Shown piece after piece: positions 30,319 through 31,409 of a DNA stretch of 64,000 nt. Made by a program: the position numbers and the translations under genes. The notes beneath the pieces were generated by a model, which worked only from the letters and a program-made list of their open reading frames with translations, made no database searches and was not told the origin of the DNA. Origin of the DNA: Escherichia phage Pu-Krd-SF1; sequence record PQ249395, one strand, 5' to 3'. Each line of letters starts with the position of its first letter. Position 1 is the first letter of the stretch.

Positions 30319-30428
30319 AAAATGCGCCTTTAAACGGTAACGTTTATCGAAAACTCCTTTAATTGCTGGAAAGTCCTTTATAGGAAAACTAGCAGCCAAG
30401 GTTTTGCTTGCACCTTTAATTAGTATAA

Positions 30429-30436
30429 TATAAATA
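30429..30436 (+). promoter_or_regulatory. late promoter TATAAATA upstream of I-TevIII
   Basis: Exact TATAAATA 28 nt upstream of the endonuclease start. Confidence 0.45.
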
Positions 30437-30463
30437 TGATTATACTTTTAAGAGGATGCACAA

Positions 30464-31273
30464 TTGAACTATAGAAAAATTTGGATAGATGCCAACGGAC
30501 CTATACCTAAAGATTCTGATGGAAGAACATACGAAATCCATCATAAAGACGGTAACCGTGAAAATAATGATTTAGATAATTTGATATGTCTTTCTATACA
30601 GGAACATTATGATATACATTTAGCTCAAAAAGACTACCAGGCTTGTCATGCTATAAAGCTCAGAATGAAATATTCTCCTGAAGAAATTTCTGAATTAGCT
30701 TCTAAAGCCGCAAAATCTAGAGAAATCCAGGTTTTTAATATCCCTGAAGTACGAGCTAAAAATATTGCCTCTATTAAATCTAAGATAGAAAATGGTACAT
30801 TTCATCTTTTAGGTGGTGAAATACAGCGTAAATCTAATTTAAATAGAGTTGCATTAGGTATACATAATTTTCAACAAGCTGAGCATATTGCAAAAGTTAA
30901 AGAACGCAATATTGCAGCTATAAAAGAAGGTACTCATGTATTTTGCGGTGGTAAAATGCAGTCAGAAACTCAATCAAAACGGGTAAATGACTGTTCACAT
31001 CATTTCTTATCAGAAGACCATAAGAAAAGAACATCAGCAAAAACATTAGAAATGGTTAAGAACGGGACCCATCCTGCACAAAAAGAAATCACATGTGATT
31101 TCTGTGGTCACATTGGTAAAGGTCCTGGATTTTATCTAAAACATAATGACAGATGTAAATTAAATCCAAATAGAATTCAATTGAATTGTCCATATTGTGA
31201 TAAGAAAGATTTATCACCATCAACATATAAACGATGGCACGGCGACAATTGCAAAACAAGGTTCAACGACTAG
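30464..31273 (+). CDS. I-TevIII: HNH homing endonuclease I-TevIII, full length (269 aa, TTG start)
   Basis: Intron ORF with HHKDGNRENNDLDNL HNH motif and Zn-finger Cys pairs; no in-frame ATG, so TTG start with AAGAGG SD. Confidence 0.7.
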   Translation: MNYRKIWIDANGPIPKDSDGRTYEIHHKDGNRENNDLDNLICLSIQEHYDIHLAQKDYQACHAIKLRMKYSPEEISELASKAAKSREIQVFNIPEVRAKNIASIKSKIENGTFHLLGGEIQRKSNLNRVALGIHNFQQAEHIAKVKERNIAAIKEGTHVFCGGKMQSETQSKRVNDCSHHFLSEDHKKRTSAKTLEMVKNGTHPAQKEITCDFCGHIGKGPGFYLKHNDRCKLNPNRIQLNCPYCDKKDLSPSTYKRWHGDNCKTRFND

Positions 31274-31409
31274 TCTTCGGACGTAGGGTCAAGCGACTCG
31301 AAATGGGGAGAATCCCTCCGGGATTGTGATATAGTCTGGTCTGCATAGTAATATGCAGCAGTTCATAAGAGAACGGGTTGAGAATTAGCGAGCTCAATCG
31401 AACATAACG

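Follow-up and report, generated by a model that had tools for sequence, protein, structure and literature searches.

This report concerns the nrdB gene in a 64,000-nucleotide (nt) stretch of Escherichia phage Pu-Krd-SF1 (sequence record PQ249395), hereafter referred to as the window; positions are counted from its first letter, and features lie on the plus strand unless a minus sign is given. We found that this Tequatrovirus nrdB gene is interrupted at positions 30319–31409 by what is, with high confidence, a full-length ("wild", RB3-type) version of the group I intron of T4 nrdB. The interruption carries an open reading frame (ORF) for the homing endonuclease I-TevIII, and the second endonuclease gene that targets nrdB, mobE, is missing from the spacer between nrdA and nrdB.

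Boundaries of the intron and the predicted spliced nrdB gene

The nrdB frame, which starts at 29643, is shut at 30320 and open again once positions 30319–31409 are removed. The removed segment is 1091 nt long, matching the ~1.09 kb of the first-pass annotation of the window. Exon 1 (29643–30318), delimited by alignment with RB3 and T4 nrdB, comprises 225 codons plus 1 nt, and exon 2 (31410–31912) comprises 2 nt, 166 codons and the stop. Joined, with a TGT cysteine codon across the junction, the two exons give an open NrdB of 392 amino acids (aa). The spliced protein aligns with Escherichia coli R2 over residues 3–388 (E = 1.5e-126) and without a gap at the junction, which reads RFYVSFAC/TFNF in the window (the slash marks the exon boundary) versus RFYVSFACSFAF in E. 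coli R2. The last base of the 5' exon is U30318, and the last base of the intron is G31409; this omega G and the restored frame are the marks by which a group I intron is recognised. Alignment with the T4 and RB3 nrdB introns, the check proposed for splice junctions that had at first been derived from frame restoration and the U/G rule, showed identical junction sequences in all three, so that the derived junctions hold. Apart from the junctions, the extent of the intron is supported by the RB3 alignment as a whole, with a sub-threshold match to the Rfam group I family (RF00028).

Positions 29500–32000 are 100% identical over 2.5 kb to Escherichia phages Pu-Krd-SF5, SF6 and SF7 (PQ759885/6/7), and many other Tequatrovirus genomes are 97–98% identical to it. 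The Pu-Krd-SF6 record gives E. coli B as host and piglet faeces from Russia as origin; coordinates of PQ759886.1 minus 58 equal window coordinates. In the records of the window phage and of many relatives, nrdB is entered as two independent coding sequences (CDSs) of 225 aa and 159 aa with neither an intron feature nor a join. In PQ759886.1 (29701–31970, window 29643–31912), the second nrdB CDS starts at an internal ATG at window position 31433, and the true exon boundary is at 31410. We flag this split into two CDSs, which automatic gene calling has produced, as a fault in the public records.

Predicted structure of the ribozyme

We built a comparative model of the intron core by hand, comprising 72 base pairs, and tested it on ten phages: the window, RB3, T4, S16, Bp7, U5, Ozark, e11/2, HY03 and Klebsiella phage EI. 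The 5' half (30315–30407) contains P1 (30315–18/30324–27), P2 (30331–36/30341–46), the 5' strand of P3 (30354–59/31305–10), P4 (30364–69/30389–94), P5 (30374–77/30382–85), and the 5' strands of P6 (30395–97/31260–62) and P6a (30401–07/31251–57). The 3' half (31251–31409), supported by the RF00028 alignment and by the pair counts, contains P6a' and P6', P7 (31268–72/31332–36), P7.1 (31273–75/31280–82), P7.2 (31286–90/31295–99), P3', P8 (31312–16/31320–24), P7', P9 (31341–47/31352–58), P9.1 (31361–64/31371–74), P9.2 (31376–82/31393–99) and the terminal G31409. Standard pairs occupy 718 of the 720 cells of this model (72 pairs in ten phages), including the P3–P9 core and the P3/P7 pseudoknot, and the two non-standard cells are an alignment gap left by a 1-nt deletion in a loop. 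The fold from P1 to P9 that the first-pass annotation had named as a check on the boundaries is supported by comparison; folding by minimum free energy (MFE) alone misses P3, P7 and P8. On a construct without the ORF, MFE folding recovered P1, P2, P4 and P5 in the 5' half and P9, P9.1 and P9.2 in the 3' half.

P1 has four base pairs (GCGU/GCGC) and places the 5' splice site at a U30318.G30324 wobble that is invariant in the ten phages. Compensatory double changes occur at four pairs (two in P2, one in P5 and one in P9, the last an A-U to G-C change) and wobble changes at three, and wherever the core varies, the position is unpaired or its pairing is preserved. Since most pairs never vary and divergence is low, the covariation support is consistent rather than overwhelming. 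Two extra hairpins, P7.1 (GUC-UUCG-GAC, 31273–31282) and P7.2 (GGGUC-AAGC-GACUC, 31286–31299), are invariant in all ten phages; such hairpins between P7 and P3' are the mark of group I subgroup IA2. Related 3' cores were also found by blastn in introns of many other phages. Taken together, the pairing evidence and the near-identity to the T4 core appear sufficient to assign a ribozyme, and the window intron would be expected to splice itself.

The intron-encoded I-TevIII

The intron ORF (30464–31273) starts with TTG, encodes 269 aa and is accommodated as a loop of P6a; the final ~23 nt of the ORF also form P6a', P6', J6/7 and the 5' strand of P7. A complete HNH endonuclease of this length and start had been called at first sight, and the residues required of such an enzyme are indeed in place. 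Pfam HNH_3 matches residues 4–48 with 46.7 bits (cut-off 24.8). Compared to RB3 I-TevIII, 263 of 269 residues (97.8%) are identical with no insertion or deletion, and the locus, the intron position and the TTG start are the same, as expected of orthologues; the TTG start is kept in all ten phages. The HNH enzyme I-TevIII works as a dimer (PMC1865063). H26, H27, N39 and H48 are needed for its cleavage activity (Robbins et al. 2007, PMC1865063), and all four are present in the N-terminal HNH domain of the window protein. At the C terminus are two CX2CX12-13HX3C zinc fingers, of which C211/C214 and C242/C245 are needed for zinc and DNA binding; for the eight zinc ligands together, the requirement has been shown or proposed (PMC1865063). 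All eight (C211/C214/H227/C231 and C242/C245/H259/C263) are likewise present.

Of the six residues that differ from RB3, Y23, V90, G117 and T265 are common to other phages; at position 23, RB3 itself is the outlier with D, and Y is found in the window and six other phages. The ratio of nonsynonymous to synonymous substitution rates (dN/dS) was 0.21 against RB3, 0.15 against Ozark, 0.20 against e11/2, 0.07 against HY03 and 0.11 against S16, and we therefore take the ORF to be under purifying selection. Given the intact residues, the 97.8% identity to RB3 and these ratios, endonuclease activity of the window protein is probable and active homing of the intron is a reasonable inference.

Elsewhere among the ten phages, I-TevIII is decayed in two, independently of the T4 deletion described below. 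In U5 (intron of 1083 nt), the TTG frame stays open for 65 codons; in Klebsiella phage EI (intron of 1090 nt), it closes after 3 codons, and the start given in that record lies 15 nt downstream.

Expression signals and predicted mechanism of homing

A Shine-Dalgarno (SD) sequence, AAGAGGA (30450–30456), lies 7 nt 5' of the TTG. Further upstream, TATAAATA (30429–30436) matches the T4 late-promoter consensus exactly and is identical in RB3 and T4; with its last base at 30436 and the TTG at 30464, the spacing of 28 nt first noted is correct. In the AT-rich window, the octamer is not significant on its own (13 found versus 9.2 expected), and we rejected it as evidence by itself; it carries weight because it is identical to the T4 sequence. 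Late-promoter function of TATAAATA in the window would follow by analogy with primer-extension work on T4 (cited in PMC2988022).

The octamer is located in the loop of a predicted hairpin (30409–30460; −17.9 kcal/mol, z = −3.0) in which AGAGG of the SD (30451–30455) is paired with CCUUU (30413–30417). The same arrangement has been described for T4 intron endonucleases, for which control by a late promoter and a hairpin is established: in early read-through transcripts the SD is sequestered, and late transcripts start inside the hairpin and leave the SD free (PMC2988022). The intron 5' of the ORF is identical to that of RB3 and differs from that of T4 only by a 1-nt insertion or deletion in the P5 loop, and late expression of the window I-TevIII is likely on this analogy.

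The following mechanism can be proposed. The intron RNA would fold into a subgroup IA2 ribozyme (P1–P9.2 with P7.1 and P7.2) and excise itself from the nrdB transcript, and splicing would rejoin U30318 to G31410 to give the normal 392-aa NrdB. The P6a loop encodes I-TevIII, whose HNH nuclease is N-terminal and whose DNA-binding domain, with two zinc fingers, is C-terminal. If T4 and RB3 are a guide, the ORF would stay silent in early nrdB pre-mRNA, in which the SD is locked in the hairpin, and its translation would come late, on transcripts initiated at the TATAAATA promoter within the hairpin. With RB3 as the model, an I-TevIII dimer would then bind an intron-less nrdB allele, and repair from an intron-plus genome would copy the intron in (homing). 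The window I-TevIII appears to have everything needed in sequence for homing as in RB3.

The nrdA-nrdB spacer and the frequency of the arrangement

The gene order in this part of the window is td (with its own intron and I-TevI), nrdA.2, nrdA.1, nrdA, nrdB, denA and rnlA, as it is in T4. The nrdA gene (27327–29591), identified from the list of ORFs and from the nrdA label in the identical PQ759886.1, encodes the large subunit of ribonucleotide reductase (754 aa). Between its last base (29591) and the nrdB start (29643), the spacer (29592–29642) is 51 bp long, the figure first reported. It is empty of mobE and hef. The absence of mobE, also proposed at first, was confirmed by tblastn with RB3 MobE, T4 MobE and T4 NrdB.1, none of which had a match in or near the nrdA-nrdB spacer; mobE is defined as an HNH ORF in this intergenic region, and the 51-bp spacer has none. 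A copy of mobE elsewhere in the window was considered and rejected: the only real match, at ~55.8–56.2 kb on the minus strand and beside uvsW, is to a paralogue with 45% identity.

A scan of 29400–32000 for sigma-70 promoters and terminators gave no signal beyond chance, and no terminator-like site was found in the spacer, which agrees with the mobE-free phages reported to have no terminator there (PMC2790892). Codon 42 of the window nrdB, the MobE nicking site, is AAG, the form reported for T2 and all mobE-lacking phages (PMC2790892); by inference, the genome would therefore be a potential recipient of mobE. The spacer is an ordinary empty site like that of T2, from which mobE is simply absent.

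How often this arrangement occurs was estimated from record counts, which include GenBank/RefSeq duplicates and reflect uneven sampling. The 491-nt intron segment that T4 lacks is present in 83 phage records, each covering at least 80% of it, with Tequatrovirus, Dhakavirus (Bp7), Gelderlandvirus (S16) and Klebsiella phages among them; the intron 3' core is found at 90% identity or more in ~170 records. An uninterrupted nrdA-nrdB junction like that of the window prevails: it occurs in 424 of 564 phage records (75%), T2 included, and RB3-type or T4-type mobE sequence is found in 134. The joint state was then searched with a query reaching from the nrdA 3' end into the N-terminal half of I-TevIII. 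Among the best 60 records, 42 (70%) gave one uninterrupted alignment, which is the state of the window, and 18 gave a two-piece alignment, which indicates an insertion in the spacer. The empty spacer is thus the commonest state among phages with a full-length I-TevIII (42 of the best 60). Pu-Krd-SF3 to SF7, vB_EcoM_112, Ozark, SHFML-11, fPS-2, phiD1, WilhelmHis, AV119-121 and others share the arrangement, with 88–100% identity from the nrdA 3' end through the N-terminal half of I-TevIII and point differences only; some of these records label the ORF "intron-associated endonuclease 3".

A link between the absence of mobE and an intact I-TevIII is not supported by these counts (42/60 versus 424/564). 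Because 70% and 75% are alike, the full-length intron and mobE seem to assort independently. Since both target nrdB, some interplay of mobE with an intact I-TevIII in phage populations is conceivable, but the same percentages argue against an association.

Alternative explanations

A low Rfam score, an incomplete MFE fold and two unusual residues in the endonuclease can be raised against a functional RB3-type intron. Searched over the whole window, Rfam gave no match at the gathering threshold; at an E-value threshold, RF00028 matched with 36 bits (gathering 50; E = 3e-7) and covered only the 3' core, namely J6/7, P3', P8, J8/7 and P9. The T4 nrdB intron, which is experimentally proven, scores 35.7 and likewise falls below gathering. 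Because the T4 intron scores alike, the shortfall points to the long ORF insertion and not to a defect, and Rfam was dropped as an arbiter of group I membership. MFE folding of the ORF-less construct mispaired P3, P7 and P8, as could be expected of a core with a P3/P7 pseudoknot. Were the interruption not a functional intron, nrdB would be split or dead and the two annotated nrdB ORFs would be real fragments, as the two CDSs without an intron in PQ759886.1 and the missing Rfam match would have it. This is barely conceivable: the junctions are identical to those of the T4 nrdB intron, which is described as self-splicing (PMC2790892), the frame is restored exactly to a full-length R2 homologue, and the core helices are kept with compensatory changes. 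The remaining adverse point concerns the endonuclease. M41I and G177C are private to the window lineage among nine copies with a readable ORF, seven intact homologues having M and G; neither change is seen in Ozark, e11/2, HY03, Bp7, S16 or RB3. M41I falls between N39 and H48 of the HNH motif, and decay of the ORF has precedents in the T4 deletion and in the broken frames of U5 and Klebsiella phage EI. The endonuclease of this lineage could accordingly be impaired or altered, leaving the intron a passenger that no longer homes by itself, at an early stage of T4-like decay. We consider this improbable, since M to I is a conservative change and G177 is a linker residue, the required H26, H27, N39, H48, C211, C214, C242 and C245 are all unchanged, the dN/dS values (0.07–0.21) indicate continuing selection on the protein, and the ORF is full length with its start, SD and promoter unchanged. 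That the M41I and G177C allele has an altered activity or cleavage behaviour is a distant prospect.

With the element read as a functional full-length intron, the history of the spacer beside it is a separate matter. The mobE-free state may be secondary: an RB3-like ancestor with both mobE and the full intron would have shed mobE, either in a deletion or through recombination with a phage that lacked it. In favour of this, the window and RB3 introns share 98.6% identity and the two NrdB proteins are 2 of 392 residues apart, T-even phages recombine freely, and recombinants with mobE but without I-TevIII have been recovered from crosses, so the elements separate easily (Wilson and Edgell, PMC2790892). 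Yet the spacer retains no remnant of mobE and is 97–100% identical to the widespread empty site, T2 included, and the near-equal mobE-free shares given above are what independent assortment predicts. On balance, we regard a loss of mobE as rather unlikely; otherwise, the intron would have entered, by homing, a genome that had been mobE-free from the start.

Other endonuclease genes in the window

The window contains at least five endonuclease genes. The td gene (24920–26796; exons ~24920–25471 and 26482–26796) carries a group I intron with a full-length, T4-like 245-aa GIY-YIG I-TevI (ORF 25600–26337), and td, too, is annotated as two separate CDSs in the public record. An ORF at 20998–21630, annotated "homing endonuclease", immediately follows a "DNA helicase loader" ORF and precedes a 301-aa "hypothetical protein"; its position is presumably that of T4 segG, between genes 59 and 32.

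On the minus strand, the mobE paralogue mentioned above (55526–56218) starts with TTG and encodes an HNH endonuclease of the mob type (230 aa). Identity to RB3 MobE is 45% over its N-terminal ~130 residues, and identity to T4 MobE is 50% over ~105 residues. The paralogue is flanked by a 502-aa UvsW-like helicase ORF (56215–57723, minus) and by an 80-aa ORF (55270–55512, minus) that is labelled "DNA helicase" in the record and is probably uvsW.1. At 57807–58343 (minus), a 178-aa ORF with a GIY-YIG-like N terminus (…YIGKHS…), annotated "homing endonuclease", has the UvsW-like helicase ORF on one side and, on the other, an ORF annotated "minor head protein inhibitor of protease". In tblastn, positions 57756–57872 (minus), just downstream of it, matched the last 43 residues of RB3 MobE at 42%.

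Comparison with RB3, T4 and other known systems

Descriptions of the intron, of I-TevIII, of its regulation and of the truncated derivative in T4 date from 1991 to 2009, and the arrangement of the window is already present in dozens of public genomes. The RB3 nrdB intron (Eddy and Gold 1991; PMC1865063; X59078, KM606994) has the same insertion site, length (1091 nt) and junctions as the window intron, with 15 mismatches in 1091 nt, and the same 269-aa TTG ORF, promoter, SD and hairpin. The two phages differ in the six I-TevIII residues and in the spacer, which is empty in the window and holds a 732-bp mobE in RB3 (KM606994). The first-pass annotation had called the arrangement an RB3-like state, and the idea that RB3 has no mobE must be corrected: RB3 combines mobE with a full-length I-TevIII, and so do RB5, RB6, RB7, RB9 and RB10. 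Judged from its sequence, the window is a third state, with the intron of RB3 and an empty spacer of the T2 type.

For T4, what the first-pass annotation had stated (an intron of ~0.6 kb, a truncated I-TevIII and mobE in the spacer) agrees with the record, in which the intron is 598 nt, the I-TevIII remnant is 97 aa, and the spacer holds mobE (141 aa) and nrdB.1 (83 aa), neither of which is in the window spacer. The T4 record annotates the nrdB intron as group IA and joins the nrdB CDS. Insertion site, ribozyme core, junctions, TTG, SD and TATAAATA are the same as in the window, and the 5' 209 nt and 3' 391 nt of the T4 intron align with it nearly base for base. T4 is without window positions 30528–31018 (491 nt) and two single bases; the HNH domain is gone, the frame is shifted, and from the TTG it runs for 22 codons before it closes. 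What is annotated in T4 as a 97-aa "I-TevIII" is left over from the zinc-finger half and is out of frame. Both ends of the deletion (window 30519–30535 and 31010–31030) lie in the imperfect direct repeats GAAGAACATA and GAAGACCATA, which suggests that the deletion arose by slippage or short-homology recombination.

Other occupants are known from the same intergenic site: mobE of the RB3 type, mobE plus nrdB.1 of the T4 type, and hef of phage U5; the window has none of them. RB3-type mobE (243 aa) and T4-type mobE (141 aa, followed by the 83-aa nrdB.1) are alike in DNA only over the first ~165–170 nt. This looks like a conserved HNH head on different C-terminal halves, and T4 mobE may be a split or rearranged form.

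The td intron of T4 is also a phage group IA2 intron in a gene of nucleotide metabolism with a looped-out homing-endonuclease ORF. This ORF, too, has a late promoter and an SD locked in a hairpin, and the enzyme that it encodes, I-TevI, likewise cleaves some way from where the intron is inserted (PMC2988022). I-TevI is of the GIY-YIG type and monomeric, whereas I-TevIII is an HNH dimer (PMC1865063).

The window intron thus has its own intact endonuclease and no mobE, whereas the T4 intron has a defunct I-TevIII plus mobE. In crosses, inheritance of the T4 intron depends on MobE (Wilson and Edgell 2009, PMC2790892). By this comparison, the window intron should need no MobE, the protein that keeps the defunct T4 copy circulating (PMC2790892). 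A full-length I-TevIII is found most often in mobE-free genomes, which fits an intron that homes on its own, unlike the T4 copy that relies on MobE.

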